DNA of 64,000 bases from positions 13,093 through 77,092 of the forward strand of contig CALVXD010000001.1 of the NCBI GenBank assembly GCA_944368815.1, given 5' to 3'. This stretch comes from an uncultured Bacilli bacterium. Its GTDB lineage: Bacteria; Bacillota_I; Bacilli_A; RF39; UBA660. The position numbers and the translations under genes are program-made. Positions 195 through 56,125 of the stretch are shown here, piece by piece; the stretch's first letter is position 1, and every line of letters starts with the position of its first letter. The notes beneath the pieces are model-generated. The model saw nothing but the letters and a program-made list of their open reading frames with translations. It did not search any database and had not been told where the DNA came from.

Positions 195-3100
195 TTAAAA
201 TAAACTTAATTGATTTGTTTCAGACATATCATTGAAAAGTCCCATTATTTTCATTTTATCAATTAATGTTTGTGATACTCTACATCTTTTTTGGAAATCT
301 TCAATACTAATAAATGTAGATTTTTCTCTTTCATTAACAATTGCTTCTGCTACACTTTCACCAAGTCCATCTAATGCTCTAAATGGTATGTATAATCCTT
401 TACCATCTTCAGTTATTACGAAGTCTTTGGCATCTGATTTATCTATATCAATATTTTTAAAATAGAATCCTCTTGCACACATCTCTAAACATAGATATAA
501 AACTCCACAAGTATCTATTTCTTTTTTACTAGCAGTTTTATTAGAAATTTTTTCTTCTATTTCATCTATTTTATTTCTAATACCATTTTCTCCAAGTATC
601 ATAGATGATGGATCAAACTGATCGCATCTTATAGAAAAGTATGCTGCATAATAATATATTGGATGATGAACTTTAAACCAGGCAATTCTAAAAGCACTTG
701 TTACATACGCTGTTGCATGGGCTTTTGGGAACATGTATTTTATTTTTCTACATGACTCGATATACCATTCAGGAATTCCTGCTTCTCTCATTGTTTCTAC
801 ATGACCTTCCCAAGTTGCAGGATCTTTACTAGCTTTTCCTTTACGAACAAATTCCATTATTTTAAAGGCTTTCGCTGGTTTCATTCCCCATGCAATTAAG
901 TTAACCATAATGTCATCACGACACCCAATTACATTTTTAAATGGAACTTTAATTTCACCATTTTCATCAGGTGTACACAAATCTCTTGCATTCCCTAACC
1001 ATACGTCAGTACCATGGGATAGTCCTGATATTTTAATAAGTTCTGCAAATGTTGTTGGTTTAGTTTCTTCTAACATTCCAAGTAAGAATGATGTACCAAA
1101 TTCAGGAATTCCGAGTGTTCCAGTTGGACAATATTTTCTTCCATTTTTATCTGTAAGTCCTCTTAATCTATCTTTTTCTACTCCAAGAACTTCCGGGCCA
1201 CAGAATATCTTCATCGTATCTCTGTCTCCTAAGTCTATTTTAGTAACATCTATTCCTGATAAATCTTGAAGTTTTCTAAGTACAGTCGGATCATCGTGTC
1301 CTAGTATATCTAGTTTTAACAAATCCGCATCAATAGCATGGTAATCAAAGTGAGTAGTTCTCCACACACTTGTGGGATCATCCGCTGGATATTGGAATGG
1401 TGTAAAATCCCAGACATCTTTATATCCCGGAACTACTACTATTCCTCCAGGGTGTTGTCCTGTTGTTCTTTTAACTCCTGTACATCCCACTGATACTCTT
1501 TCTACTTCTGCTACTCTAGCACTTACTTTTAGTAACTTTTTCTTCTTTAAATCATCTTTACTAGGAACTGACAAGCCATAACTATTTGCTTCTATTTTAA
1601 GAACATTATGAGCTTGTTCTTCATAGAATCCTAAAACATAACCATATGCTGTTTTATCTGCAACTGTACCAATAGTCCCTGCCCTATATACATTATCTGT
1701 TCCAAATAATACTTTTGTATATTCATGAGCTGATGCTTGGTTATCTCCGCTAAAGTTAAGGTCAATATCAGGGACTTTATCAGCATTGAAACCTAAGAAA
1801 GTAGCAAACGGCATATCATTTCCTTCGTGTACCATTTTTGATTCACATTTTGGACACATTCTTTCTGGTAAATCAAAACCGCTAGCATAATTTTTAGATA
1901 AAGGATTACCCTTTTCATCATTAAAAATACTATATCCACAATTAGGGCAATAATAATGTGCTGGTAATCCATTACATTCTGTTATTCCCATCATATTGGC
2001 AACGAGAGATGAACCAACAGAACCACGTGATCCTACTAAGTATCCATCATCATTTGAGTGCTTAACTAACTTTTGGGCAATTAAGTAAATAACGTCAAAG
2101 CCTCCACCAATGATACCTCCTAATGATGCTTTAGCTTTTTCTATCGCAACTTCATCAGTTAAAGTATTATCTTCTCTTTGCATCTTTTCTTTAACTAAGT
2201 TAACTACCCCATCATATCCACTCATAATAACATCATGAAGTACACTAGGTAACATTTTATCTTTTTTATTTTCATCCAAGTCAGGATAATCTAAATTAAT
2301 CTTATCTTTTACAAGTCCTAAAATAGTATCACCATAAAATTCTTGAGCAATTCTCTCTTCAATCATCCTAGGAAGGGGATTACCATACATGCTATGTGCT
2401 TTAGTATAAACTAAATCACGACATGTCTCCTGTGAATGTTCAATAATTGGCGAATATGGTTTATCAGGATATTCTACTACTTCTATTTCACTAATCATAT
2501 CTAATATTTTATTAGGGTTAACTACTACTATTTCATTAATCAAGTCTTCATCTTCTAACCAAGAAAATTCTTCTTTCATTTCATTAGTAGTTCTTAAGAA
2601 TTGATTAGGTATATGACCACTTACAGATAATTTAGTGGGTTCATAATAACGGAAATCATCTACAAGAGAATATACTATTTTTTCATCTTTAGTTCTAAGT
2701 TCTATAATATTTAAAGATTGGAACTTTCTAAGAGCATCTTCTATTTTACTCTTCTTATATTCTTCTTTAGATTTTAATATTTCTTCTTCTTTATTATTTT
2801 TATCTATTTGATATAACTCTACTAAATTCATAAGAGTAATTGGAATATCTTTAACATTAGTTAAAGTGTAAATATATTTAAGTACCTTTACATCAATAGA
2901 AGTTAACTCTACTCCCTTAGTTTTTACATACTCTATTAGATTTTCTATATTTTCATTATTGACATTACCTTTAAGATTCCCTGACAAATATCTAGCAAGA
3001 GGATGTCTACCTTTACCAGGAACATTTTGATTTACAATAATTTCTCTATATAATACATCTTCTTTATTTATATTATGTACGTCTCCAGTTGCCACAATTA

Positions 3101-5882
3101 ATTTATTGCATTTTTTAGCACAATAAATTATTTTCTTTATACATTTTTTTAAGTGCTCTATATTATTTATATCGTGTCCTTTTAACAAATGGGAATAGTT
3201 TTCTATTGGTTGTACTTCAATATAATCATAAAACTCCATTGCCTTCATTAAGTCTTCTTCATTACGAGTTTCTGCTAAATAGAAAATTTCTCCATTAAGA
3301 CAAGCAGAACCTATAAGTAATCCTTCTCTGTTTTCTTCGATTAATTTTCTAGGTATTTTAGCATTTCTTACAATAAAGTTAGTATTTGCATAACTAATTA
3401 TTTTAAATAAATTTTTAAGTCCTACTTTATCTTTTGCTAAAAATGTAACATGCTTAGTATTATCATATAAATTAGCAATATGTTCTGTAATCGTTTTTCC
3501 AGGAATATTCTCATACATTTGTAAATAATTATCATGACACCAAGGATACTTCCATATATATTCCTTATTGTTGTATCCTATAAATGGATATCCCCTTTTT
3601 TCATCCTCTTCTATATTATTCGTACAAGGCTCGACATAATTTTTATAACTGCATAAATCATGTATATTTTCTAGTTTTTTAGGATCATTTTTAAATGAAA
3701 TTTCTTCTAGTAATTTCAAATCATTTAACTCACTAATTTTATTAATTCCTTCAATTTGTTTTAACATTTTAGCAAATATATAACCAGTATTTTCTGAGTC
3801 AACATCCGCACCATGGTGTTGTCCAACATATATTTTAATTTTAATGGTATTAAATTCATCAATATTTACTACTTCTTCATTTTCTGCTGGATGTAATTTT
3901 ATATCTTTTTCTATTACATTATTATCTTTTAAATTAATTATTAAATGACAAGTTTCTGTTTTACTAGCCTTACGAACTTTGTTTAAATAAGTTCCTTCTT
4001 CGGTAGTTTTTAATATAGATTCACCATCTACCTTTATATCTTCTAATTTATTTAGTAAATAATTATCTAATTTTACACTACTACTTGGTACTCCACTTGC
4101 ATTTTCTTCATCTTCTTCATCTGCTTCTCCGGTATTTATTCCGTAAAATTTACCTAACGCTTTTAAACTATGTTTCTTTAAGTCCCTATTTATTACTCTA
4201 GATAACATAAGTGTATCTATGATTGGATTTTCTAACTTACCTAAATCATATTTATAATAGGCCATATCTAACATATTTTTATCAAATCTTGCATTATGTG
4301 CTACTAAAGGTAAAGTACCAATCCATTCTTTAAATCTTTTTACAACATTTTCTTCATTGTCAGAATCTTTTACATCATCATCTGATATATCTGTAACTCT
4401 TGTTATTTCTTCATCAATATGATGACCAGGATTAATTAATTCATCAAAACGATCTACAACTTCTCCATTTTTTAATTTAACTGCACCAAGTTCAATCATT
4501 GAGTCTCCCAAACCTGGATTAAATCCTGTTGTTTCAGTATCGAATATTACGAATGTATTATTTTCGATTAATTCATCATTCGGATTAAAACATACATTTA
4601 AATATGATTCACACATATCTATTTCGCTACCATATGCTACTTTAAAATATTTTAAATTATCTTTTTCTTTTATAGCATTTTCAAGTTCTATATTTAATTC
4701 ATCTAAACCTTCTGTTTTACCTTCATTAGTAAGTGTTTCTATTTTACCTTTAATTTCTTCTATTTTAGCAGTTGTTGCTTTCTTTAATCCTTTATTATAA
4801 CTAGTAACTTCCCCGAAAACATGAGGAAAAGCTTGACAACAATCGTGATCAGTAATAGCGATACCAGGGTGTCCAAATTTAATTGCCTGTTTAACTAATT
4901 TTACTTCATCACATACTCCATCCATTTGACTCATCATTGTATGAGCATGTAATTCCACTCTTTTTTCTTTGGCATCATCTGCTCTTTTATTTTCTTCTTG
5001 TCCATCAATTGCAGTAATATCTTTAAATCTTGTATTGAATACTAATTCTTTTGCAAATTCATCTGTTACTACTTTTCCATAGAATCTATAGTACTTTCCT
5101 TCTTTTAATAAATCTTTAAGTCTTGCAAACTCATCTTCACTTTTAGTAAATATTTTTGCATACATACTATCAGTACCATCAGTAACTTTTAAAGTAAATA
5201 TTTTATATCCACTTTTAGATTCAAATATATCTATTCCAAATAATTTTATTTCAATATTTATATTATCTATTTCATTTTTAATGTCTTTTATTGAAACTAC
5301 ATCTTCACTTTTCTTTTCACGATAATTATTCTTAACTTCTTTTTTTTCTTCAAAAACATAAGTTTCATTTACAACTTTATCTTCTTCAATTTGTTTTAAT
5401 AATTCATCTTCCCCTGTATTATCCATTACTATATTTAATTTATAATAATACCCATATTTTCTAAGTCTATCATTAATTCGTTCTAATTCTTGTAGTAAAT
5501 AAGCTTTTTCTATTTTATTATATACTTTTATTTCAATGTTATCTTCATTAACTATTATTTCTCTATCCTTAAATATATTATATTTGCTACTACTTTTAAT
5601 TAAACTATCAATAATTAAATTAAAATATTCATTAAGATACTCGTTATCTTTATTTTTACTAATAATAGTTAAATCTATTTTGTCAACATTAAATGATTCT
5701 GATAATTTATTATTTAAATAAGTATATACATAACTAGGTATATTATTATCTACTATAATAACAAATTCCCATAATTTAGTTTTATCATATACTATTATTT
5801 TTTCTAATTCGCTGTTATCAAAATATTCCATATATTTATCTAAATTTATTTGTTTAAATAATTTTTCTAATTTACTACTCAT
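195..5882 (-). CDS. polC: DNA polymerase III PolC (Gram-positive type), unusually long at 1895 aa
   Basis: PHP motif VELHAHTMMSQMDG; DEDD exonuclease FVIFDTETTGFNP..VAHNARFDKNML; polymerase core GYLVGSRGSVGSS, CPNCG/CPKC zinc motif, KVPDIDLNFSG; C-terminal NQLSLF as in B. subtilis PolC. Promoter-like TGaTTATAAT and a GGTGG RBS lie upstream. Confidence 0.92.
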   Translation of the reverse strand: MSSKLEKLFKQINLDKYMEYFDNSELEKIIVYDKTKLWEFVIIVDNNIPSYVYTYLNNKLSESFNVDKIDLTIISKNKDNEYLNEYFNLIIDSLIKSSSKYNIFKDREIIVNEDNIEIKVYNKIEKAYLLQELERINDRLRKYGYYYKLNIVMDNTGEDELLKQIEEDKVVNETYVFEEKKEVKNNYREKKSEDVVSIKDIKNEIDNINIEIKLFGIDIFESKSGYKIFTLKVTDGTDSMYAKIFTKSEDEFARLKDLLKEGKYYRFYGKVVTDEFAKELVFNTRFKDITAIDGQEENKRADDAKEKRVELHAHTMMSQMDGVCDEVKLVKQAIKFGHPGIAITDHDCCQAFPHVFGEVTSYNKGLKKATTAKIEEIKGKIETLTNEGKTEGLDELNIELENAIKEKDNLKYFKVAYGSEIDMCESYLNVCFNPNDELIENNTFVIFDTETTGFNPGLGDSMIELGAVKLKNGEVVDRFDELINPGHHIDEEITRVTDISDDDVKDSDNEENVVKRFKEWIGTLPLVAHNARFDKNMLDMAYYKYDLGKLENPIIDTLMLSRVINRDLKKHSLKALGKFYGINTGEADEEDEENASGVPSSSVKLDNYLLNKLEDIKVDGESILKTTEEGTYLNKVRKASKTETCHLIINLKDNNVIEKDIKLHPAENEEVVNIDEFNTIKIKIYVGQHHGADVDSENTGYIFAKMLKQIEGINKISELNDLKLLEEISFKNDPKKLENIHDLCSYKNYVEPCTNNIEEDEKRGYPFIGYNNKEYIWKYPWCHDNYLQMYENIPGKTITEHIANLYDNTKHVTFLAKDKVGLKNLFKIISYANTNFIVRNAKIPRKLIEENREGLLIGSACLNGEIFYLAETRNEEDLMKAMEFYDYIEVQPIENYSHLLKGHDINNIEHLKKCIKKIIYCAKKCNKLIVATGDVHNINKEDVLYREIIVNQNVPGKGRHPLARYLSGNLKGNVNNENIENLIEYVKTKGVELTSIDVKVLKYIYTLTNVKDIPITLMNLVELYQIDKNNKEEEILKSKEEYKKSKIEDALRKFQSLNIIELRTKDEKIVYSLVDDFRYYEPTKLSVSGHIPNQFLRTTNEMKEEFSWLEDEDLINEIVVVNPNKILDMISEIEVVEYPDKPYSPIIEHSQETCRDLVYTKAHSMYGNPLPRMIEERIAQEFYGDTILGLVKDKINLDYPDLDENKKDKMLPSVLHDVIMSGYDGVVNLVKEKMQREDNTLTDEVAIEKAKASLGGIIGGGFDVIYLIAQKLVKHSNDDGYLVGSRGSVGSSLVANMMGITECNGLPAHYYCPNCGYSIFNDEKGNPLSKNYASGFDLPERMCPKCESKMVHEGNDMPFATFLGFNADKVPDIDLNFSGDNQASAHEYTKVLFGTDNVYRAGTIGTVADKTAYGYVLGFYEEQAHNVLKIEANSYGLSVPSKDDLKKKKLLKVSARVAEVERVSVGCTGVKRTTGQHPGGIVVVPGYKDVWDFTPFQYPADDPTSVWRTTHFDYHAIDADLLKLDILGHDDPTVLRKLQDLSGIDVTKIDLGDRDTMKIFCGPEVLGVEKDRLRGLTDKNGRKYCPTGTLGIPEFGTSFLLGMLEETKPTTFAELIKISGLSHGTDVWLGNARDLCTPDENGEIKVPFKNVIGCRDDIMVNLIAWGMKPAKAFKIMEFVRKGKASKDPATWEGHVETMREAGIPEWYIESCRKIKYMFPKAHATAYVTSAFRIAWFKVHHPIYYYAAYFSIRCDQFDPSSMILGENGIRNKIDEIEEKISNKTASKKEIDTCGVLYLCLEMCARGFYFKNIDIDKSDAKDFVITEDGKGLYIPFRALDGLGESVAEAIVNEREKSTFISIEDFQKRCRVSQTLIDKMKIMGLFNDMSETNQLSLF

Positions 5883-6749: not shown

Positions 6750-7367
6750 TCACCTTCCTTTTATTCTATCTTTATCTTCTACTAAAGCTTTTTGAAATTC
6801 CATTTCTAATAAAGTTTTTGTAAAAAAAGCCATTCTTATTCCCTCTAACATATTATTACTATCAACTTGAGACCAATCTAATTTATAATTAGGAATTCTT
6901 GTTTCTACCAATTCTCTTAAAAATTCTCTAATAGTTCTTCCATTGCCTTCTCTAAAAGGATGAACTTTTATTAAAGCACTATAAGTATTAGCCAAAAATC
7001 TAGCATAATCTTCAAAATAATGACATGTTTCTAATTCTTCATTCATTTCTTTAATAACAATTTCTAACTCTATATCAATATTTTTTACTGAAGTCACATA
7101 CAAATTGCCTTTTCCCATAAAAACTGTCCTATATTGTCCAGCAAATGGATAAATTTCTTCAAACAAATACTTATGAATATCACATAAATGTTTTTTATCA
7201 AAATTACCATTTATTGGTTCCTCATACAATTCAACTAATTTTTTAAAAACAATTTCAGATTCTTTGGTTTTTAATTCTTCATTATCCCTAATTCCAAATT
7301 TATTCTTTAAAACACCATCAGTTCCTGGAATTAAATATTCTTCCCATTTCTTATCTTCTTCTGTCAT
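6750..7367 (-). CDS. Fic family protein (AMPylation toxin domain), class I
   Basis: Canonical Fic active-site motif HPFREGNGRTIR (HxFx[D/E]GNGRxxR); 205 aa; its start overlaps an upstream small ORF. Confidence 0.85.
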   Translation of the reverse strand: MTEEDKKWEEYLIPGTDGVLKNKFGIRDNEELKTKESEIVFKKLVELYEEPINGNFDKKHLCDIHKYLFEEIYPFAGQYRTVFMGKGNLYVTSVKNIDIELEIVIKEMNEELETCHYFEDYARFLANTYSALIKVHPFREGNGRTIREFLRELVETRIPNYKLDWSQVDSNNMLEGIRMAFFTKTLLEMEFQKALVEDKDRIKGR

Positions 7368-7503
7368 TTACCAAAATTCTCCTTCGCACTGGTTTTTGAT
7401 GTTCTTGCCTTACTTCATCTATTTTTTTCTTACTAACTGTTAAATTTTCTAATGCTAAACTTGCAAGCACCTCTTCAATTATTTTATTAATATCTCTTTC
7501 CAT
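7351..7503 (-). CDS. Small Fic antitoxin (VbhA/anti-Fic-like), 50 aa, absent from the ORF track
   Basis: ATG at 7503, TAA at 7351-7353; translation MERDINKIIEEVLASLALENLTVSKKKIDEVRQEHQKPVRRRILVNDRRR. It contains SLALEN, matching the inhibitory helix motif [S/T]xxxE[G/N], and overlaps the Fic start by about 17 nt. Confidence 0.55.
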   Translation of the reverse strand: MERDINKIIEEVLASLALENLTVSKKKIDEVRQEHQKPVRRRILVNDRRR

Positions 7504-9582: not shown

Positions 9583-11052
9583 TTATTTATTATATTTTAG
9601 TTCTTCCAATATTTCTTTTATGATAACCCTTTCATCAAATGGTTTTCTAATACCATTTATTTCTTGATAATCTTCATGCCCTTTACCTAAAAGTAATATA
9701 ATATCTCCTTCTTCAGCATTTACAATACTATATTTTATTGCTTCTTTTCTATCCGGTATAGTTATATACTTTCCATTAGTTTTATGCATACCTATTAATA
9801 TATCGTTTATTATATCATTAACATCTTCGTATCTAGAATTATCTGCAGTTATTATTGAAAAATCTGCTAATCTACCTGATACTTCTCCCATTTCATATCT
9901 TCTATCTTTACTTCTATTACCACCGCATCCAAAAATTGTTACTATACGTTTAGGATTATATTCTCTAATTGTTGTTAATATACTTTCTGTTGATACACCA
10001 TTATGAGCATAATCTATAAGTAAATTAAATTTATCAGAAATTGGAACCGGTTCTACTCTTCCTTTTACAGCTATAGTTGATAATGCTCTTTTCATTGAAT
10101 CTATTGAACATCCTATTAAAAATGTTGTTAACATAGCACACATTGCATTATATGCTGAAAATGTTCCAGGAGTATTAATTTTAAAAGTATCAGAAATAAC
10201 TCCTCCAGTTGTCATACTAATACCTATAATACCTTTTTCTCTTAAAAGTTCTACTTTATCACAATATAAATTAGCTTTTTTATCATATCCAAAAGTATTA
10301 ATATCACAAGTACAGCCATTAATCATTTTATTATAATTACTATCATCTATATTAAATATTCCATGAATAGATTGTTTAAATAGTAATGATTTACATTCAA
10401 TATATTCTTCCATTGATGCATGTTCTCCATCACCAATATGATCATGTGTTAAATTTGTAAATACACCATAATCAAAAGTTATTCCATCTACTCTTCCTAA
10501 CTTTAATGCTTGTGATGATACCTCCATTACAGCATATTCAATGTTATTATCAACCATTTCTTTTAGATATTTATGAATATCATAAGATTCAGGTGTAGTA
10601 TTTACTAAATCATAATGTTTATCATTTATAAATACACCCATAGTACCTATGACACCAACTGATTTATTATCTTCTTCCAAAATTCTTTTAATCATCCATG
10701 TAGTAGTAGTTTTTCCTTTTGTTCCTGTTATTCCAATCATTTTTAATTTTTTAGAAGGATTATCAAATAAATTAGATGATAATAATGCTAAACTCCTTCT
10801 AGTATCATTTAACTTAATAACAGTTACATCATTATCTAATTGTACATCTTTTTCTACAAAAATAACTTTTGCTCCATTTTTTATTGCATCATCAATATAC
10901 TTATGACCATCCATATTATGACCTACTAATGCAATAAAAGCATCATTTTCTTTAACGTTTTTAGAATTGTAACAAATGTCATTTATTTCTACATCTATAT
11001 TACCCTTTACAACTTCATAATTAATATTTTTTAACACATCTTTTAACAACAT
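9583..11052 (-). CDS. murE: UDP-N-acetylmuramoyl-L-alanyl-D-glutamate--2,6-diaminopimelate (or lysine) ligase MurE
   Basis: Mur ligase P-loop GITGTKGKTTTT; MurE-like N-terminus (MLLKDVLKNI...), DYAHN and other C-terminal domain features. Confidence 0.88.
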   Translation of the reverse strand: MLLKDVLKNINYEVVKGNIDVEINDICYNSKNVKENDAFIALVGHNMDGHKYIDDAIKNGAKVIFVEKDVQLDNDVTVIKLNDTRRSLALLSSNLFDNPSKKLKMIGITGTKGKTTTTWMIKRILEEDNKSVGVIGTMGVFINDKHYDLVNTTPESYDIHKYLKEMVDNNIEYAVMEVSSQALKLGRVDGITFDYGVFTNLTHDHIGDGEHASMEEYIECKSLLFKQSIHGIFNIDDSNYNKMINGCTCDINTFGYDKKANLYCDKVELLREKGIIGISMTTGGVISDTFKINTPGTFSAYNAMCAMLTTFLIGCSIDSMKRALSTIAVKGRVEPVPISDKFNLLIDYAHNGVSTESILTTIREYNPKRIVTIFGCGGNRSKDRRYEMGEVSGRLADFSIITADNSRYEDVNDIINDILIGMHKTNGKYITIPDRKEAIKYSIVNAEEGDIILLLGKGHEDYQEINGIRKPFDERVIIKEILEELKYNK

Positions 11053-11125
11053 AAAATCACCACTTCCTTATAAATAAATTATATCATTTACTACATTATA
11101 TGTAAATAAACAAAATAAAAAGACG

Positions 11126-12037
11126 TTAAATTTCTGGATTAACTATAACGTTTTCCATCATCAATTCGTCTTTAAATTCTTCTTTAAAAACAACAAGTTC
11201 CTTCTTTATAACATCAGGATATACTGCTTTAGTAGTTCTTATTGCTTCATATATATCTTGAAAATTTACTGCCGCTCTATTTGCATATAATGCATTAGAA
11301 AAAGCTTGTCTCAATATCATTAAAGCAATATCTGGATATCTTGAAGATATTTCATATACTCTCTTATATTCAGATGTCATATTTACAATAAATTTCATAA
11401 TTTTTTCTTTAATAAATTCTGTATAAGGTAAACTTACTCCTGTTTGTTTTTCTATTTTAGGAAGTGTTTTCATGAGTATTTCGACACACATTTCTTGTGT
11501 TGGTTCTTCAATATCAATTCGCTCAAATCTTCTAACAAATGCCTTATCTCTTAATATATATTTTTCATATTCATAAGTTGTAGTAGCCCCAATCATTTTA
11601 ATACTACCTCTACTAAGACCTTCTTTAAACATATTAGCTAAATCTAATGCTCCCTGAGCATCATTTCCTATTAATGTATGTATTTCATCTATAAATAAAA
11701 TTATTTTTTCTTGTTGTTTTAATTCTTCTACTAATTTTAATACACGATTTTCACTTTCAGAATTACCAATTAAAGCAGTTGTATTAATCCTAAAAATTCT
11801 ATATCCTTTAAGTACATTAGGTACATCATTCATTTGAATTTTAAAGGCAAGCCCTTCTACTATTGCTGTTTTACCAATTCCCGGTTTACCTACCAATATA
11901 GCTGATTTTTCAGGAGTTAATAATACTAATATTAATTTTTTTATTTCTTCATCCCTAGCAATTGCAGGATTAGTAATATAAGTAGCTTTAGTAAGTTCAT
12001 CAGCATATCTATTTAACATTGAATTATTATCATTCAT
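11126..12037 (-). CDS. Stand-alone ClpB/ClpC D1-like AAA+ ATPase module (303 aa)
   Basis: Near-identical D1 signature ILVGKPGIGKTAIVEGLA (ClpB: LIGEPGVGKTAIVEGLA); Walker B ILFIDEIH; sensor-1 GATT; arginine finger FVRRFE; no N-domain, M-domain or D2. Confidence 0.7.
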   Translation of the reverse strand: MNDNNSMLNRYADELTKATYITNPAIARDEEIKKLILVLLTPEKSAILVGKPGIGKTAIVEGLAFKIQMNDVPNVLKGYRIFRINTTALIGNSESENRVLKLVEELKQQEKIILFIDEIHTLIGNDAQGALDLANMFKEGLSRGSIKMIGATTTYEYEKYILRDKAFVRRFERIDIEEPTQEMCVEILMKTLPKIEKQTGVSLPYTEFIKEKIMKFIVNMTSEYKRVYEISSRYPDIALMILRQAFSNALYANRAAVNFQDIYEAIRTTKAVYPDVIKKELVVFKEEFKDELMMENVIVNPEI

Positions 12038-12207
12038 AAAGTATCTCCTATCTACAAATATAAATTATTATTAACCACATAATTGAAGTAGCAATCATTG
12101 ATCCTAAAAAAACAATATTGGAAAAACCAGCACTTTTATTTTCTAGTTTATAATTATCAATGGGCATATTCCTTTCTTCAATTATTATTGGTAGATTCCT
12201 TTCCATT

Positions 12208-12501
12208 TTACATCACTTCTCTTAATTTATCAACTTTTTCATACTCTATCATAGTATCTAATATTTTATCCATGGCTAATCTTTTTTCACATAATCTTAA
12301 TTTACTTTCATATTCATTTAATTTTCTTTCAATTAATCTTAATGCTTTGTGAACTGCTGTTCTACTAACCTTTAAATTTTCAGCAATTTCTGATAAAGTA
12401 TAATTATTAAAATAATATTCTTCAAAATAAACTTTTTGTCTATCACTAAATAATGGTCCATACATATCGTATAGCATTATTGTATAATCTCTTTTTTCCA
12501 T
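12208..12501 (-). CDS. ylxM: YlxM/UPF0122 family putative DNA-binding protein (normally between ftsY and ffh)
   Basis: YTLSEIAENLKVSRTAVHKAL matches the YlxM HTH region (B. subtilis [21 protein letters not shown]); position directly after ftsY. Confidence 0.7.
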   Translation of the reverse strand: MEKRDYTIMLYDMYGPLFSDRQKVYFEEYYFNNYTLSEIAENLKVSRTAVHKALRLIERKLNEYESKLRLCEKRLAMDKILDTMIEYEKVDKLREVM

Positions 12502-12502
12502 A

Positions 12503-12787
12503 TCACATAGTCTCCATTAATGTATAAAATACTGCAAATATTAAAAGTCCTACTCCTAATCCAAATAATAAATATACTAATAATTGTTTTTCTTTATCTT
12601 CTTTATAATAATAACAAATACAGAAAAACAATAATGATAACATTATAATAGCACTAGGTAAAAATTCTATCATATTAAATGATAAAACTGCTAAAACTAT
12701 AAATAATATTCCTACTATATAGCATACTGCTTTTTCATAACTTCGATTACTTTTTAATACTTTATTCTTATCAGTATTCTTTTTCAT
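12503..12787 (-). CDS. Small membrane protein (2-3 TM helices)
   Basis: 94-aa hydrophobic ORF between ftsY and ylxM. Confidence 0.35.
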   Translation of the reverse strand: MKKNTDKNKVLKSNRSYEKAVCYIVGILFIVLAVLSFNMIEFLPSAIIMLSLLFFCICYYYKEDKEKQLLVYLLFGLGVGLLIFAVFYTLMETM

Positions 12788-12801
12788 TAATTTTTTCCTT
12801 T

Positions 12802-13767
12802 CTATAAATCTTTAAATAAACCATATATGTATTTTTCTATATCAAATGGTTCTAAATCTTCAACCTTTTCCCCAAGTCCTACAAATTTAACGGGTATTCC
12901 TACTTCTTCTTTTATTGCAAGAACTATTCCACCTTTTGCTGTTCCATCTAATTTTGTAAGAACTATTCCTGTAATATTTGTTATTTCTTTAAATGATTTA
13001 GCTTGGGCAATTCCATTTTGACCTGTAGTAGCATCTATTACTAACAAAGTTTCATGTGGGGCATCTTCTATATGTGTTTTTATTACTTTATTTATCTTAG
13101 CAAGTTCATTCATTAAGTTTACTTTATTTTGAAGTCTACCTGCTGTATCTATTAATACTACATCATAGTTTTCTTTTTTAGCAATATCAAGTCCATCATA
13201 TACAACACTTGAAGGATCTTTTACATTTTTAGTAATAACTCTTACTCCTACTCTTTCTGACCATTCTTCTATTTGTTCAATAGCACCCGCTCTAAATGTA
13301 TCAGCAGCTACTAATAAAACTTTTTTACCATCACTCTTTAGTTTAGAAGCAATTTTACCAATAGTAGTAGTCTTACCTACACCATTAACTCCAATAAAAA
13401 GAACAACTGTAGGGCCATTAGTGTTATAATTTATTTTACTATTTATAACATCGTTACCTACATACATGATAAATAATTCATCAATAATAACATCTTTTAA
13501 CATTTTAGAATCAGTTATTTTTTCAGATTTTACTCTTAATTTTAATTTATCTACAAAATTCATTACTGTATTAACGCCAATATCAGCCATAATTAAAATA
13601 TTTTCTAATTCTTCAAAATAATCATCGTTAATAAATTTATATTTATTTGATAAATTACTTAATTGTGAAATAAATTCTTTTCTTGTTTTTTCTAAACCTT
13701 CTTCATATTTAGTTACTTTTTCCGGTTCTTTTTGAAAAATGGTTTTAAACTTATCAAATAATCCCAT
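12802..13767 (-). CDS. ftsY: Signal recognition particle receptor FtsY (short form)
   Basis: SRP GTPase motifs GVNGVGKTTTIGK, DTAGR, TKLDG. Confidence 0.9.
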   Translation of the reverse strand: MGLFDKFKTIFQKEPEKVTKYEEGLEKTRKEFISQLSNLSNKYKFINDDYFEELENILIMADIGVNTVMNFVDKLKLRVKSEKITDSKMLKDVIIDELFIMYVGNDVINSKINYNTNGPTVVLFIGVNGVGKTTTIGKIASKLKSDGKKVLLVAADTFRAGAIEQIEEWSERVGVRVITKNVKDPSSVVYDGLDIAKKENYDVVLIDTAGRLQNKVNLMNELAKINKVIKTHIEDAPHETLLVIDATTGQNGIAQAKSFKEITNITGIVLTKLDGTAKGGIVLAIKEEVGIPVKFVGLGEKVEDLEPFDIEKYIYGLFKDL

Positions 13768-13849
13768 ACCCTAACCTCCTCATATAATTTATTATACCAC
13801 AATTATTAGTATTATTAACATTAAATTTAGAGAAAGAAAAAAGAAGTAA

Positions 13850-15403
13850 TTATTTTGCCTCTTCTGTAGCTCTTACTTCTCTTATTACAGTTACTTTTAT
13901 AGTACCTGGATATTGCATTTGTTCTTCAATTTTCTCTTTTATTTCTCTTGCAATTTGATAAGATGACAAATCATCTACTTCATCAGGTTTAACCATTACA
14001 CGAAGTTCACGACCTGCTTGTACAGCATATGTTTTATCAACACCTGGAGTTGAATTTCCAATTGATTCTAACTGTTCTAACCTTTGGAAATAATTTTCAG
14101 TTGAATCGTTTCTTGCACCCGGACGTGATGCTGATATAGTATCTGCGATTGCTACTATTGCGGCAATTACACTAGTCGCAGGAGTATCTCCATGGTGAGA
14201 TGCTATTGCATTAATAACAACTTCATCTTCACCGTACTTTTTAGCAAGGTCAACACCTATTTGAATATGACTTCCTTCCATTTCATAATCTATTGCTTTA
14301 CCAATATCATGTAAAAGTCCTGCTCTTTTAGCAAGCATTACATTTTCTCCTAATTCTGCGGCTAAAAGTCCTGATAAATAAGCCACTTCTAACGAATGCT
14401 TTAACGCATTTTGACCATAACTACTTCTAAAATGAAGTCTTCCAATTGTTTCTACTAATTCAGAATCCATTTTTGAAAGCCCTAAGTCATATATTACTTC
14501 TTTTCCGTATTCTCTTATTTGTGTATTAACATCAGTACATGTTTTATCATATACTTCTTCAATTCTACCTGGATGTATTCTTCCATCTTTAATTAAAGTT
14601 TCTAGAGTAAGTCTTGCTATTTCTCTTCTTAAAGGATCAAAACTAGATATAACTATTGCTTCTGGAGTATCATCTATTATAAGATCAACTCCTGTTACGG
14701 ATTCAATAGTACGAACATTTCTTCCTTCTCTACCAATAATTCTTCCTTTCATTTCATCATTAGGTAAAGTAATTACTGATACAGTTTGTTCATTAGTAAC
14801 ATCAGCAGCATACTTTTGCATCGCACTAACAAGCATTTCTTTTGCTTTGCCATCTACTTCTAATTTCGCTTCACTTTCTTTTTCTTTAATATAAGCAGAT
14901 ATTTCTCTACCCATATTTTCTTTAACAATCTTCATAATTTCATCATGGGCTTGTTCTTTTGTATATTTACTAATTCTCTCTAGTTCATCTAATTGTTGTT
15001 TTTTAATTTCTTCCATTTTATCTTTTTCTTCTTGAATCTCTTTTTGCTTATTTAAAAGATTATTTTCTCTTTCTTCTAAAGAAAGTTCTCTATTTTGAAG
15101 AGTTTGATCTCTTCTATCCATATTATTTTCTCTTTGTAATAATCTTTCTTCTGATTCTTTTATTTCACTTTTCTTTTCTTTTATTTCTTTATCAGTTTCT
15201 AATTTTAATTTATGCATTTCTTCTTTAGCTTCAAATAAACTATCTCTTTTAATTTTATCTGCTTCTTTTTTAGCCATATCAATGATACTTTCTGCTTTTT
15301 TAGTATCTTTTTTCATATTTATATAATTAAAAGTTATAACTCCCACTATACCGAAAGCAAATCCAAGAATTACTAGTAAAATGGAGAACCAAATACTATC
15401 CAT
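13850..15403 (-). CDS. rny: Ribonuclease Y
   Basis: N-terminal TM helix, long E/K coiled coil, KH domain [17 protein letters not shown] domain (HSLEVA...LLHDIGK). Start chosen at MDSIWF (15403), preceded by GGAGGTG. Confidence 0.9.
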
Positions 15404-15526
15404 AGTACACCTCCATTTCATTATTTATTATAGAAAAAATTTAAATATAATTTAATTTAGACTACAATATAATTGTATCTATCTTTTTTAAATATGTCAA
15501 GGACTTTTTTTCTACAAAAAAGAAGC

Positions 15527-17246: not shown

Positions 17247-17714
17247 TTACCTCCTTATTGCGTAAGTAATATTATCATTATCAAAATCATTACCACCAAT
17301 ACTACTTACAACAATATAACCAATTATTAAAAGAGCAATAACTCCTACTATATAAAATACATATTTAGGTATTTTTCTATCATTTGTAACTATTGTATAA
17401 GGAGATGATACTTTATTTTCATCTTCCTTTTTATTCTTCTTTGCTTCTTCTATATCATCTAATGAAATTTTTGAAGTTACATCAAACATGTATTCATTAT
17501 ATTCATCTAATATTTTTTCAGAATCTAATCCTAAATATTTAGCATAATCTCTAATAAAATATTTTAAAAATAATGAATCTTTAAAGCTTTCTGTATTTCC
17601 TTCCTCTAAGTTCGTTATTTGACTAGGTCGCATTTTTAAGTCTTCAGCAGCCTCTTCTACCGAGACACCATTTTCTTCCCTTTTATCTTTTAACTTTTGT
17701 CCTATTTCTTTCAT
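17247..17714 (-). CDS. RodZ-like HTH membrane protein (YmfM-like)
   Basis: N-terminal XRE-type HTH (IGQKLKDKREENGVSVEEAAEDLKMRPSQITNLEEG) plus a C-terminal TM segment; start taken at MKEIGQ. Confidence 0.65.
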   Translation of the reverse strand: MKEIGQKLKDKREENGVSVEEAAEDLKMRPSQITNLEEGNTESFKDSLFLKYFIRDYAKYLGLDSEKILDEYNEYMFDVTSKISLDDIEEAKKNKKEDENKVSSPYTIVTNDRKIPKYVFYIVGVIALLIIGYIVVSSIGGNDFDNDNITYAIRR

Positions 17715-17749
17715 TATTATCCTCATTTCTACAATAATAATCTTATAAG

Positions 17750-18086
17750 CCACGTTCTGTACCTATTAAGGCGACAAACATTTATCTATGACTTTCGTCA
17801 TCCATCCCACAGATTCATTTCTCCTAGGATAGTTCCCCTACCAAAATTTGGGTTTCTCGCTTATGGGGTTTACCGCGTTTCACCTACTTATTTCTAAGTA
17901 ATTCGTCACTGTGGCACTTTATATTCATAAACCTTAGTTTCCCTTAGGTCTTAGAATGCCGTGAGTATAAACTCCCTTAGGTTATTTTTTCCCTAAGCAT
18001 AAACACTACTATCATCTCAGATAGTGCGAGCGTGGACTTTCCTCTACATATCTCTATGCAGCGTTTGTCCAGATATTATTGTTCTT
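17750..18086 (-). ncRNA. rnpB: RNase P RNA, bacterial type B (rnpB)
   Basis: On the minus strand: GUAGAGGAAAGUCCACGCUCGCAC (B. subtilis GUAGAGGAAAGUCCAUGCUCGCAC), CGCGGUAAACCCC, GAAACCCAAAUUUUGG, and the 3' region ACAGAACGUGGCUUAU (P4 3' strand). P1 pairs GAACAAUAAUAUCU with AGAUUAUUAUUGU. GC content is higher than the flanks. Sits directly downstream of gpsB as in B. subtilis. Ends approximate. Confidence 0.85.
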
Positions 18087-30179: not shown

Positions 30180-30941
30180 AAGTATTCAGAGCAAAAGTCA
30201 AAATAAATTTTGACTAACTTACCTCATGGTAAGTTTTTTCTACTTCTTAGGAATATACATTCCTCCATAGACCAGGATCGGATAGTGCTACCCTACTTAT
30301 ATTAAATCGTCAAAATTTATGGTGTCATTAGTTCTTTTTCGTAAGTTTTAATATATATATTTAATCCTTCTAACATAATATTTATTCACTTCTTTTTTGA
30401 TAACAGCACTTTTTATCGTCCCATTAAATGTATTTTTATTTCTATATCCTCTTATTGGTACTTCTTTTAGTTTCGGTAAAGTTATTGTTTTGTTTTTTAA
30501 ATCTAATTTTATACTATTATAATATTTACCTTTATAAGTACTCTTTATATTATTAGTTTTATAACTATTATGAATTCCCCTTATTTTAAATTTAGGATAT
30601 CCTCCTAAATTTTTATAATATCTTTTATAAGCATCTTCTAAATTAAATACACTATTTCTAAGAGCACAACTATCTGCTTCTTTTAAAAAAGTTTTTTCTT
30701 TTGAAAGTTCTGAAATTAACTTTATTCCACTATATGCATTACTAATTTTTTTATCTAAAAAATAGTTATAAATGAATCTACAACTATCTATTGTTTTATT
30801 TATTAATTTTTCTTTGCATTTATTTGGGTACATTCTAAATTTATAAGACTTATATATTTTCATGTTACAACCACCACCCGTAATTGCATTATAAAATATA
30901 AACATTTGTTTGTTAATATTTTTTTGTAAGCAAAAAAACAT
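30180..30941 (-). mobile_element. Decayed IS200/IS605-family element (tnpB-only remnant plus right-end relic)
   Basis: Truncated tnpB ORF plus perfect palindromes GTCAAAAT-AA-ATTTTGAC (30197-30214) and AACTTACC-TCAT-GGTAAGTT (30215-30234) and a GC-enriched patch (30240-30300). Confidence 0.45.
30348..30863 (-). pseudogene. tnpB: Truncated TnpB (IS605 OrfB) N-terminal fragment
   Basis: MKIYKSYKFRMYPNKCKEKLINKTIDSCRFIYNYFLDKK matches the conserved TnpB N-terminus (KAYKFRLYPT..Q...LN.TFG.CRFVYN). Only about 171 aa, versus about 400 aa for intact TnpB; ends before RuvC-I. Confidence 0.6.
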
Positions 30942-42055: not shown

Positions 42056-42634
42056 ATGAATTTAATTCCTACTGTAATCGAAAAAAGTAATATGGGAGAA
42101 AGAGCTTATGATATATATTCTAGATTACTTAAAGATAGAATAATTATATTAAGCGGAGAAATCGATGATAATTTAGCAAATAGTATTGTAGCCCAATTAT
42201 TGTATTTAGATAGTATTAATAATGATACAATTAATTTGTATATTAATTCTCCTGGTGGTAGTATAACATCAGGCATGGCTATATATGATACAATGAATTT
42301 TATTAAAAGTGATGTTTCAACAATTTGTATTGGAATGGCAGCATCTATGGCAGCCTTTCTATTATCAAGTGGTAAGAAAGGGAAAAGATTTTGTCTTCCT
42401 AATTCCGAAGTTATGATCCACCAACCTTTAGGTGGTGCCCAAGGTCAAGCAACAGAAATTAAAATAGCGGCTGAAAGAATATTAAAACTAAAAGATAAAT
42501 TGAATACTATTCTAGCCAAAAATACAGGTAAATCTTTAAAACAAATAGAACGAGATACGGAAAGAGATAACTTTATGGATAGCAATGAAGCATTTGAATA
42601 TGGAATAGTAGATAAAATATTAAAGCAAAGATAA
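42056..42634 (+). CDS. clpP: ATP-dependent Clp protease proteolytic subunit
   Basis: Catalytic triad context [11 protein letters not shown] (Ser), MIHQPLGG (His) and a conserved Asp region. Confidence 0.93.
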
Positions 42635-54072: not shown

Positions 54073-54642
54073 CTAATAGTTTTCTATGTTTACAAGATTT
54101 CCAATGTATACTGTTTGCATATTATCGTTATTAAGAGTACAAGTAATTAAAGTAATAGTTCTAATATCACTATCCTTATGTATAGTTATTTTACCATCCT
54201 TTCTTTCATTATAAATATTTACTATTTTATATGTATATTTCTTTCCATTATAGTAAATATAACAATAATCATTAATAACTAATTTATATAAATATCTAAA
54301 ATATGATACATCACTAGTTCCTGAATGACCTGCAATTACTAAATTACCTTTTTCTATATCTGGCATATTAGAAGAATTAATTATTTCTAAATTTTGATTA
54401 ACATTATTTTGAAATGAATCTATATTATATAGTCCTTTTTTTAAGTTTATTTTAGGTATTTCTAATATCATTAAATATTCATTTATATTAGTATCTTTTT
54501 TAGTATTATCAACCTCTTCTTTTTCAAAGAACATATTTATATTATTTTTTTCTATTATACCTTCCCTTTTATCATTAATAATTGTATTAAGTACCCACAT
54601 TATACTAACTCCTATTAAAAGAAATCCTATTCTTTTTATCAT
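54073..54642 (-). CDS. Small sortase (class D/B-like transpeptidase)
   Basis: N-terminal TM, catalytic His region LVIAGHSG, active-site Cys in TLITC, conserved Arg downstream; 189 aa. Confidence 0.75.
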   Translation of the reverse strand: MIKRIGFLLIGVSIMWVLNTIINDKREGIIEKNNINMFFEKEEVDNTKKDTNINEYLMILEIPKINLKKGLYNIDSFQNNVNQNLEIINSSNMPDIEKGNLVIAGHSGTSDVSYFRYLYKLVINDYCYIYYNGKKYTYKIVNIYNERKDGKITIHKDSDIRTITLITCTLNNDNMQTVYIGNLVNIENY

Positions 54643-56125
54643 ATATTATTAAACTAACTCCTACACAAAAGATTCCTAAAATACTAAAAGATTTAGTATA
54701 ATCCTTATTTAATAAAGTATTAGGTACTTCTATTACTGGTTCATTTTCTACAGTTAAATTAATTACTTCTTTATTTTCTTTTATTTCAAAATATATTTTA
54801 TTACTATCTAAAATATATCCCTCTACTGTTTCTACTTCTACAAGATAATATTTTCCTAAAGGTAAGTTCTCTATTAAAATTTTCCCTTCTTCATTAGTTA
54901 CTGTTTCTAATATAAATTCATCATTTTCTGTATATAATTGAAATTTAGTATTAGGTAATTTATTTCCATTAGTTTTATCTATTTTAATTAATTCTAAACT
55001 ACCTTTTGGCAACTCATTTTCTATATTGAAATTAGTTGTAGCTAAACTAGGATTATCTTTATCATATATTAATTCAAATTTATACTCTGTATCTATTGCA
55101 ATATTTCCCATAGATGAAGATACTTCTTTTAATATATATTTTCCAAAGTATAAGTCTTTAATCGTTACTTTTCCTTCTTCATTCGTTTTGTAAATACCAA
55201 TCACATCACCTTTATTATAAATAGTTTTACCTTGAACTATAATTGGTTCATCTACTATTAATTCAAAAACTACATTACTTAAAGGTATATTTTCATAGAG
55301 TATACCATTATCAAATTTAACAGTTTCTCCTATTTTATTTATTTCTATTTCTCCAGAATGAATATTAATATTTACATTAGCACTTTTATTTTCTAGATAA
55401 CCTGATGTAAGAAATTTTTGAGAACTTCCTGCATAATAAAACATAAATACTTCATTTGTATAACTTTTTCTTTTTAAATTTATAGAATTAACATTATCTA
55501 ATATATATAATTTATTATCAAAAACATAGGAATTATTTCTATCAATTATTTCATAATCATTTAATACTAAATTTTTATCTTCAATTATAATATCTTGTCC
55601 TTTTATAAAATCAAAAGTATTATTATTAAAAGACGGTAATAAATTATTTTTATTTACTTTATCTAAAATATTGTTTTTTTCTTGTTCTACATCAATTCTA
55701 GGTCCATGTACTTGATCAATGCTTGTCCAATATACTTCTCCTTTACCATTTAATACAGCCTCCCATATTAATTCTTGAGCGGCTAAAAAATATTTTATAT
55801 CACTTTTATTAAAATAATCATATCCATAATAAGCAATTAACTTTATTCTTTCTTTTACTTCATTAGGCAAATTCAATTTATCAAAATTACTAGTAGAACT
55901 ATAAATAGAAGTAGTTATATGAACATTAGGTTCAATACAATAAGCTGTTTTACCATTCATTATAAATAAATCTTGTAAATATAAATAATATTCACCATTA
56001 GACATTTCAAATACTGCGTATATATCCCCAATATATTCTTGTTTTAATTTAGAATCATTTATTTCCCCTTTTATACTAATTGGCATAATTAATAACATTA
56101 TAATTATAAATATTATTTTTTTCAT
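54605..56125 (-). CDS. Surface adhesin with a thioester domain (TED) and CnaB-type domains; sortase substrate
   Basis: Signal peptide. TED motifs: Cys in TAYCIEP and Gln in AAQELIW ([YFL]C..; .Q...W). Two CnaB/prealbumin-like repeats (LPLGKYYLVEVETVEGY, LYFGKYILKEV). C-terminal sorting signal VPNTL + TM (ILGIFCVGVSLII) + KKNR tail. Confidence 0.6.
   Translation of the reverse strand: MKKIIFIIIMLLIMPISIKGEINDSKLKQEYIGDIYAVFEMSNGEYYLYLQDLFIMNGKTAYCIEPNVHITTSIYSSTSNFDKLNLPNEVKERIKLIAYYGYDYFNKSDIKYFLAAQELIWEAVLNGKGEVYWTSIDQVHGPRIDVEQEKNNILDKVNKNNLLPSFNNNTFDFIKGQDIIIEDKNLVLNDYEIIDRNNSYVFDNKLYILDNVNSINLKRKSYTNEVFMFYYAGSSQKFLTSGYLENKSANVNINIHSGEIEINKIGETVKFDNGILYENIPLSNVVFELIVDEPIIVQGKTIYNKGDVIGIYKTNEEGKVTIKDLYFGKYILKEVSSSMGNIAIDTEYKFELIYDKDNPSLATTNFNIENELPKGSLELIKIDKTNGNKLPNTKFQLYTENDEFILETVTNEEGKILIENLPLGKYYLVEVETVEGYILDSNKIYFEIKENKEVINLTVENEPVIEVPNTLLNKDYTKSFSILGIFCVGVSLIIYDKKNRISFNRS

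Follow-up and report, generated by a model that had tools for sequence, protein, structure and literature searches.

Gene locus and domain identity

The DNA stretch under study (referred to as the window) comprises 64,000 nucleotides of contig CALVXD010000001.1 from the assembly GCA_944368815.1 of an uncultured Bacilli bacterium. At positions 11126..12037 of its minus strand lies an AAA+ gene with an ATG start, which encodes a stand-alone protein of 303 amino acids (aa) of the Hsp100/Clp D1 type, i.e., the type of the first AAA+ module of these proteins. It stands behind ftsY and ylxM and ahead of murE. Identification was based on the open reading frame (ORF), profile searches, a structure model computed with AlphaFold2 (AF2), Foldseek comparison, and the ratio of nonsynonymous to synonymous substitution rates (dN/dS). 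A GGAG sequence 8 nt 5' of the start codon was read as the gene's own ribosome-binding site.

The protein was placed in the AAA+ superfamily by a PF00004 match of 56.2 bits against a Pfam gathering cut-off of 21.2. Within NCBIfam, the D1 regions of the ClpA, ClpB and ClpV models all matched, with E-values of 1e-49 to 1e-52; positions 163-435 of the ClpA model were aligned to residues 3-272 (E 3.7e-52), and positions 151-359 of the ClpB model to residues 3-202 (E 3.2e-50). The whole-protein equivalog cut-offs were not reached (ClpA 177.5 vs 993 bits; ClpB 171.4 vs 1232; ClpV 167.2 vs 885), as is expected of one module of a two-module protein. The nearest solved structures found with HMMER were the D1 modules of ClpB, ClpC, ClpC1, Hsp104 and ClpA (E 1e-40 to 1e-35, ClpB and ClpC best), and identity to canonical D1 modules was about 30-40%.

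An AF2 model was calculated with 40 diverse family members as input, resulting in a mean predicted local distance difference test score (pLDDT) of 86 and a predicted template modelling score of 0.83. The large subdomain is complete in the model and is followed by a small subdomain of four helices and by two additional short C-terminal helices, which together make up the whole protein; poor order is confined to the two pore-loop regions. When the model was compared to the Protein Data Bank with Foldseek, the top 50 matches were all D1 tiers of ClpC1, ClpB, ClpA, ClpC or Hsp104, at template modelling (TM) scores of 0.70-0.79 and 29-33% identity.

No other part of an Hsp100/Clp protein was detected. 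Apart from PF00004, Pfam gave no match in the protein for Clp_N, AAA_lid_9, AAA_2 or ClpB_D2-small. The chain starts about 20 residues ahead of the NPAIxRD motif and contains no Clp N-terminal repeat domain. The M-domain coiled coil is absent, the lid being continuous (helices 181-268) and free of insertions. A second AAA+ module (D2), as present in the two-module class I proteins, is missing from the 303-aa chain, and models of the D2 or HCLR type (AAA_2, PF07724; ClpX; HslU) gave no match at E ≤ 0.01. In ClpA and ClpC, the ClpP-docking loop sits in D2; direct reading of the 303-aa sequence revealed no ClpP-docking tripeptide [ILV]G[FL]. A complete D1 module lacking N-domain, M-domain and D2, as proposed in an earlier note on this DNA, is therefore borne out by the profile matches, the solved relatives and the motifs described below, and the architecture, a free-standing D1 with intact catalytic motifs, is indeed unusual.

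Motifs and pore loops

All motifs are given by residue and by position on the minus strand. Walker A reads GKPGIGKT (residues 50-57; 11867..11890), with lysine replacing the usual glutamate at its second position; the earlier reading of GKPGIGKT rather than GEPGVGKT was confirmed. Alignment A1 shows no variation at G50, G55, K56 and T57. Walker B, IILFIDEIH (residues 112-120; 11678..11704), contains D117, E118 and H120, invariant in alignments A1 and A2. Sensor-1 is GATT (residues 150-153; 11579..11590), with T152 and T153 invariant and G150 and A151 conserved to at least 90%. The arginine pair R169-R170, followed by F171 (11525..11533), is the counterpart of the trans-acting arginines of the Clp D1 motif RRF and pairs with ERRF of ClpB; both arginines are conserved to at least 90% and F171 is invariant. 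The FIDEIH, GATT and RRF motifs named previously were all found in the sequence. The small alpha-helical lid subdomain (residues ~181-270; 11228..11497) is diverged, without M-domain insertion and without a PF17871 match, and the alignment to the ClpA model extends to model position 435. Its helices (residues 181-199, 207-220, 236-251 and 259-268) were modelled with pLDDT values of 90-97.

In the alignment of 40 diverse members, G50, G55, K56, T57, D117, E118, T152, T153, R169 and R170 are kept. Across all tiers of the family, the lysine and threonine of Walker A, the D-E of Walker B, the two threonines of sensor-1, the arginine pair and the D1 signatures NPxxGRD, EY, KD.A and EP are invariant or conserved to at least 90%.

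Pore loop 1 is reduced to the remnant G91-NSESEN-R98 (11744..11767), from which KYRG is gone and which contains no aromatic residue, as seen in HMMER alignments to ClpB and ClpC and in the family alignment; pLDDT dips to 69 at this site. The ClpB segment AGAKYRGEFEERL pairs with IGNS----ESENRV of the AAA+ protein, leaving a gap of four residues at K-Y-R-G. The KYRGEFE segment had been described as replaced; it is altered, but more exactly it has suffered a four-residue deletion of K-Y-R-G. The secondary pore loop is of the D1' type, GNDAQGALDLA (residues 124-134; 11636..11668), and is one residue shorter than that of ClpB in the alignment. Residues 125-131 within it are the confidence minimum of the AF2 model.

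The loop of the ClpB D1 ring comprises residues 247-258 and grips substrate through Y251 as the primary contact, while K250 and R252 brace adjacent loops, and either K250E or R252E abolishes activity (10.1101/428458). The D1' loop of ClpB comprises residues 284-295 (10.1101/428458). The aromatic residue of pore loop 1 that characterises threading AAA+ unfoldases (within KYR in Clp D1, Ar-phi elsewhere) is absent from the AAA+ protein, as KYRG is deleted.

Integrity of the gene

The protein database search yielded more than 100 clusters at 75-100% identity to the AAA+ protein, all of 297-310 aa, and 16 loci from named metagenome-assembled genomes (MAGs) encode a protein of the same length. Against three close relatives, dN/dS of the AAA+ gene was 0.04-0.06, compared with 0.03-0.12 for ftsY, murE and rny. 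Protein identity within the clade was 67-81% for the AAA+ protein, 67-76% for FtsY, 59-62% for MurE and 42-55% for YlxM. On the 3' side, the stop codon is followed by 73 bp and then by murE (9583-11052), and no D2 remnant is present there. The interval holds a promoter-like site on the minus strand (TTTACA-17-TATAAT with TG; 11078..11106; 11 of 12 consensus positions, consensus match only), which suggests that murE has a start of its own and that the unit running from ftsY to the AAA+ gene ends here.

A decay product, i.e., the 5' remnant of a frameshifted or truncated clpB or clpC, was among the earlier proposals. Only the resemblance to D1 and the missing D2 favour a remnant, and its probability is negligible given the conserved length, the low dN/dS, the promoter-like site and murE directly downstream, and the lid subdomain and C-terminal helices, which are complete and confidently folded in the AF2 model. 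D2-encoding sequence contiguous with the ORF was looked for in close relatives as well and was not found. The ORF is an intact, strongly constrained stand-alone AAA+ gene.

Family, architectures and tails

A total of 1.84 billion cluster representatives was searched, followed by two database searches, and 470 proteins were fetched. D1-only proteins of about 300 aa were found to form a conserved family, which answers the question of homology raised by the earlier note. Public sources label the members only as 'AAA family ATPase'. The hosts are MAGs named uncultured 'Bacilli bacterium' or 'Tenericutes/Mycoplasmatota bacterium' as well as Clostridium sp. CAG:762 and CAG:914; CAG-914 is placed in Bacilli_A; RF39; UBA660 in a taxonomy table (PMC13508870). 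So far, the family is confined to uncultured low-GC gut Bacilli (RF39/UBA660 and related 'Bacilli' or 'Mycoplasmatota' MAGs).

Three architectures were distinguished. Core-only proteins comprise about 300-316 aa. A second group has the same core at 57-62% identity plus a low-complexity, predicted-disordered N- or C-terminal extension of 150-800 residues. A deeper tier at about 40% identity comprises proteins of 420-590 aa with some 200 additional N-terminal residues, which represent a diverged Clp N-domain: one member (P0183) aligns to positions 18-346 of the ClpB model, and phrog_4871 covers residues 69-498 of another (P0158). This tier has a ClpB-like aromatic loop, GC.YRGMFEERVE, and a Walker A motif of the GE or GD type, while the first two groups have in common Walker A GKPG[IV]GKT and a shortened, non-aromatic loop. 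The clade of the window protein has lost the N-domain as well as the K-Y-R-G motif.

The GKPG[IV]GKT motif, present in 323 of the 470 fetched proteins, marks this clade. An aromatic-x-Gly loop motif occurs in 3 of these 323 proteins vs about 90% of the members with GE- or GD-type Walker A, and the spacing from Walker A to Walker B is 63-65 residues vs 67. Throughout the clade, 2-4 residues are deleted from the pore loop and the pore-loop tyrosine is removed; loop variants without an aromatic residue include GNS-ES-ENRV, GTLPSGESKV and GVDPVTGEAKV.

The C-terminal tails take the form '...N(Y/F)FDDF(Y/F)(D/E)', with 67 of 79 ending in D[DE][FY][FY][DE]. The N-terminal tails open with NRFIFS(D/N)D(Y/F)Y(D/E) or (K/R)FFMPDNFYDE, so that an acidic-aromatic motif occupies the distal tip whichever end is extended. 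Such a layout suggests a docking peptide on a flexible tether. Elsewhere in the window, the motif was found only in a helix of the FtsY N-domain (INDDYFEELE) and in an unrelated ORF of 406 aa; both occurrences were judged coincidental.

Tailed relatives are represented by P0121-P0145 and P0363-P0470 (e.g., locus L021, 6001-8898, and locus L027, 5001-7757), with motif examples NYFDDFYE, NRFIFSDDYYD and KFFMPDNFYDE. A short conserved helix, D..LLSG.I..I, lies inside the C-terminal tails of sister clades. Members of the Clp-N-like tier (P0158, P0160, P0183, P0272 and others) carry a conserved C-terminal K(I/V)IxFP, and the window clade has ENVIVNPEI in the same columns.

The protein was not assigned to a well-known single-domain AAA family, a possibility raised by the earlier note: Pfam, NCBIfam, PHROGs and PADLOC gave generic AAA or Clp-D1-region matches only, in line with the generic naming of the members. 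No specific PHROG or PADLOC family was hit; the sole strong match was the generic Clp entry phrog_4871, and PADLOC returned weak P-loop matches (E 1e-7 to 1e-9). A phage or mobile origin, or membership among anti-phage-defence AAA ATPases, was considered and rejected, as all tblastn matches in phages were below 40% identity and generic Clp and the gene context is of the housekeeping type. The literature search found no description of a D1-only Clp family; the name 'ClpN' is used there for a class II label or for the N-domain.

Gene neighbourhood

The genes upstream of the AAA+ gene are, in the direction of reading, ftsY for the receptor of the signal recognition particle (SRP) (321 aa; 12802..13767; TIGR00064, 361 bits, E 3.6e-108), a gene for a small membrane protein of 94 aa (12503..12787; ORF; 32-96% identity in most syntenic loci; marginal TctB match of 30.5 bits), and ylxM for the SRP accessory helix-turn-helix (HTH) protein (97 aa; 12208..12501; PF04297, E 4.9e-22; NF045758, 86.8 bits vs a cut-off of 80). 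All are encoded on the minus strand, and the profile matches confirm the gene order stated previously.

A second small gene, which the earlier note did not list, fills the 171-bp gap that separates ylxM from the AAA+ gene. It encodes a mini membrane protein of 52 aa (12048..12206, minus strand) with a tail-anchored layout, as judged from sequence, and its stop codon overlaps the ribosome-binding site of the AAA+ gene. Although the DNA has diverged, 13 of 16 syntenic loci conserve the mini-protein in its amino acid sequence, with lengths of 44 to 66 aa. Its N-terminus is charged (often LP.D.Y/F-K), and a conserved G(F/Y)xD...T opens the hydrophobic C-terminal helix, where the 19-residue Kyte-Doolittle maximum reaches 2.0-2.9 and beyond which 2-5 residues remain. 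At locus L029, a gene of 44 aa was called independently, 1 nt ahead of the AAA+ gene. The mini-protein gene and the AAA+ gene are apparently translationally coupled. An RNA element in the gap, such as SRP RNA, was considered and rejected: Rfam found none there, and the gap encodes the conserved mini-protein.

Between ylxM and the AAA+ gene, no terminator-like site was found. All 15 loci of the window clade that reach far enough upstream keep the order ftsY-(small membrane ORF)-ylxM-AAA+ gene, while the outer neighbours vary within the clade, with rny upstream and murE downstream in some loci only. Other subfamilies lie in unrelated places: P0385 after ileS and an acetyltransferase gene, P0361 between a cation-efflux gene and glmS, P0183 upstream of genes for a DUF5684 protein and a signal peptidase, P0446 beside a recombinase or prophage-like region, and P0188 near glmS and an HTH regulator gene. 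The ftsY-ylxM linkage is therefore clade-specific and was not used as family-wide functional evidence.

Within the 64-kb window and 357 kb of related loci, neither an ffh-like nor a second Clp-like ORF was found, so the reported absence of ffh from this locus holds. The AAA+ ORF itself gave no match to the N, G or M domains of SRP54 in Pfam or NCBIfam and no BLASTP similarity to FtsY. Since FtsY is intact and highly conserved, Ffh is presumably encoded elsewhere. The significance attached to the site as the place where ffh is expected has no demonstrated functional meaning, the order being limited to one clade and other subfamilies lying elsewhere. The position after ftsY-ylxM is a lineage-specific gene order and no evidence for a replacement of Ffh.

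A neighbour common to all subfamilies was sought without a consistent result; glmS near two subfamilies and murE near the clade of the window are too weak a pattern for use. These cell-wall precursor genes, observed near the AAA+ gene in three subfamilies (glmS in L023, 7213-8964, and L028, 1911-3758; murE in the window clade), may have come to lie there by chance.

Synonymous divergence (dS) against L002 and L003 shifts over positions 11126-15421, from 0.10-0.16 in rny and ftsY to 0.59-0.84 in the AAA+ gene and murE, with ylxM intermediate. Such a jump among otherwise close strains suggests a recombination boundary near ylxM.

Other features of the window

The window encodes ClpP (42056..42634, plus strand; PF00574, E 2e-82), which shows that a Clp protease system exists in the organism; no partner ATPase is present in the window. 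The gene belongs to a short block read on the plus strand (about 42-46.6 kb), at which the sign of the GC skew switches. At L016, the distance between clpP and the AAA+ gene is about 5 kb. As ClpP is encoded here, other Clp ATPases must exist in the organism.

The PolC gene (195-5882, minus strand) encodes 1895 aa, an excess of about 450 residues over the 1445 positions of the PolC model; the match to the model is split into five stretches, which suggests large insertions. A Fic/VbhT-like adenylyltransferase of 205 aa, the start of which is overlapped by a 50-aa upstream ORF (7351-7503), forms a toxin-antitoxin-like pair (6750-7503, minus strand) set between genes for a cardiolipin synthase and an SDR oxidoreductase. 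The RNA of RNase P (class B; 17741..18076, minus strand; 287 bits) directly adjoins the start of a RodZ-like gene (17247-17753); Rfam matched nothing else in the window, and tRNA genes were not found in the 64 kb. An ORF of 197 aa (30348-30941, minus strand) matches only the HTH domain of IS605 OrfB and is probably a transposase-family remnant or TnpB-related fragment. At 54073-56125 (minus strand), a sortase gene overlaps the gene of a SpaA-type pilin-like protein of 506 aa, and an arylsulfotransferase-like gene adjoins the two, giving this gut bacterium of reduced genome a surface-structure cluster.

Comparison with known systems

The AAA+ protein has the same fold as the D1 modules of the class I proteins ClpC/ClpC1, ClpB/Hsp104 and ClpA (TM 0.70-0.79 in Foldseek) and shares with them the motifs NPxxGRD, GxxGxGKT..VEGLA, hhhhDEhH, GATT, EY..Y...D.AL.RRF and EP; its small subdomain ends in a ClpA-like 'V.f.DI..ai' helix. 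It differs from class I in the absence of N-domain, M-domain, D2 and ClpP-binding loop, in GKPG instead of GEPG, in the deleted KYRG, and in a lid beyond the reach of AAA_lid_9.

The class II proteins ClpX, HslU and Skd3 (human CLPB) resemble the AAA+ protein in having one Hsp100-related AAA+ module per chain. However, their module is of the D2/HCLR type and keeps an aromatic pore loop, whereas the AAA+ protein is of the D1 type and was not matched by AAA_2, ClpX or HslU. The nucleotide-binding domain (NBD) of Skd3 is homologous to NBD2 (PMC7343390), and NBD2 groups with ClpX and Lon (10.1101/428458).

The AAA+ protein also invites comparison with the torsins, as a parallel in the proposed mode of working and not in membership: it is D1-derived and keeps both arginines. 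Torsins are eukaryotic, luminal proteins with a D2-derived Hsp100 module that lacks an aromatic pore-loop residue; they are thought not to thread substrates and act at the membrane with small membrane-protein partners. They have no arginine finger of their own, which is supplied by LAP1 or LULL1. To our knowledge, the described single-module Clp/Hsp100 relatives (ClpX, HslU, Skd3 and torsins) are all of the D2 type.

Partial Clp architectures are known to be kept as functional genes, as in ClpC2/ClpC3 and ClpT, which consist of the N-domain only. The truncated Clp paralogues comprise either the N-domain alone or everything but the N-domain, and unlike the AAA+ protein none is a D1-only ATPase. 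A short ClpB isoform without N-domain is noted in PMC6168691.

Proposed mode of action and alternatives

The best explanation, held with middling confidence and drawn from sequence-derived evidence, is that the AAA+ protein is an ATP-hydrolysing D1-only oligomer that probably does not thread substrates and would act as an ATP-gated switch with appended or partner-borne targeting. The conserved trans-acting arginines point to ATP hydrolysis by an oligomer, which would probably take the form of a ring or spiral as in other Clp D1 tiers. Since the gripping tyrosine, the flanking basic residues and a D2 motor are all missing, the protein is most likely no processive threading unfoldase and would instead serve as an ATP-gated binding or remodelling switch. 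Targeting would be achieved in deep members by the Clp-N-like domain and in sister clades by the long disordered tails with their acidic-aromatic docking motif; in the clade of the window, the tail-anchored mini-protein possibly holds the AAA+ protein at the membrane.

Several observations weigh against this explanation. When isolated, the NBDs of ClpB, Hsp104 and Skd3 often stay monomeric and show no activity (PMC7343390), so that a protein consisting of D1 alone need not form a ring. Three of the 16 syntenic loci (L004, L005 and L009) lack the mini-protein, which is therefore no obligatory partner. Docking of the tail tip on its own AAA+ core received no support from an AF2 model of the 523-aa protein P0427, in which the tail had pLDDT values of 30-48 and the tip barely exceeded 50; a partner of the tail motif acting in trans is more likely. 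Finally, the AAA+ protein still has the D1'-type loop and, in loop 1, the E-x-E residues, the ClpB mutant Y251A is milder than the D2 tyrosine mutant (10.1101/428458), and the retained loops may grip polypeptides in a non-canonical way.

These last points also speak for the alternative of a genuine single-ring unfoldase or disaggregase that threads by non-canonical pore residues (E94/E96 and the D1'-type loop 124-134), perhaps aided by a partner. Every ATPase and inter-subunit residue is conserved, Foldseek matched the fold to that of Clp D1 rings with bound substrate, and the YRG loop kept by deeper members makes threading the probable ancestral activity. Yet K, Y, R and G are all deleted, no loop aromatic is left in 320 of the 323 clade members, the exchange of a single basic residue of this loop for glutamate is enough to inactivate ClpB (K250E or R252E; 10.1101/428458), and neither a D2 motor nor an N-domain is present. 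The suggestion of a new small unfoldase loses support, since the whole clade has undergone deletion of the KYRG loop and with it of the tyrosine that grips substrate; we regard such an activity as unlikely while giving it appreciable weight. Still less probable is a role in SRP-dependent membrane-protein biogenesis together with FtsY and YlxM, such as the remodelling or recycling of targeting complexes or the handling of tail-anchored or failed insertion substrates at the membrane; the operon position would then be meaningful. The unit of ftsY, membrane ORF, ylxM, mini-protein gene and AAA+ gene is kept in 15 of 15 clade loci while its outer flanks change, it holds two small membrane proteins, and it is uninterrupted by a terminator between ylxM and the AAA+ gene, with a promoter-like site only behind the latter. 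PMC8546722, citing Williams 2014, describes YlxM as a modulator of GTP hydrolysis that binds both Ffh and SRP RNA. The tight, invariant linkage could reflect function, which would count against the switch proposed above; on the other hand, genomes of one family may share a gene order by descent and not by selection, the N-domain tier and those relatives of 57-62% identity that also show this pore-loop deletion lie in unrelated neighbourhoods, and no sequence feature ties the AAA+ protein to SRP components.

It is very improbable that the AAA+ protein serves as a decoy or regulatory subunit for a full-length ClpC, ClpE or ClpL of the same cell, joining or capping the D1 tier of the latter and so modulating ClpP-dependent proteolysis. 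Truncated Clp paralogues that modulate the parent machine provide precedents (a ClpB isoform truncated at the N-terminus, and ClpC2 and ClpT, which consist of the N-domain alone), ClpP is present in the organism so that partner Clp ATPases must exist, and the D1 interface residues and the arginine pair are conserved. Against this stand the low identity to canonical D1 (about 30-40%), the lack of a full-length Clp gene nearby at any locus (window and 357 kb), the missing ClpP-binding [ILV]G[FL] loop in the sequence, and the docking-motif tails of sister clades, which point to autonomous function.

Significance

In the classification of Clp/Hsp100 proteins, the D1-only type is an empty slot, which a widespread family under strong constraint would fill. 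At present, the significance is limited, since the organisms are uncultured and the conspicuous site in place of ffh reflects lineage-specific gene order. In its boldest form, which we consider improbable at present, the proposal would make the GKPG clade a new class of Clp-derived machine: a non-threading D1-only ring working as an ATP switch, recruited by acidic-aromatic peptides or by the mini-protein, and acting in RF39 bacteria at the membrane with the SRP-receptor operon in membrane-protein biogenesis or quality control, as a bacterial, D1-derived counterpart of torsins. The family presents an evolutionary series from N-domain plus D1 with the pore-loop tyrosine, via D1 alone without it, to D1 with disordered tails and docking motif. 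This series could reveal what a lone D1 ring does and why the KYR loop is needed. As the family is abundant in reduced-genome gut bacteria of the RF39 type, the retained gene is likely to be important to them.

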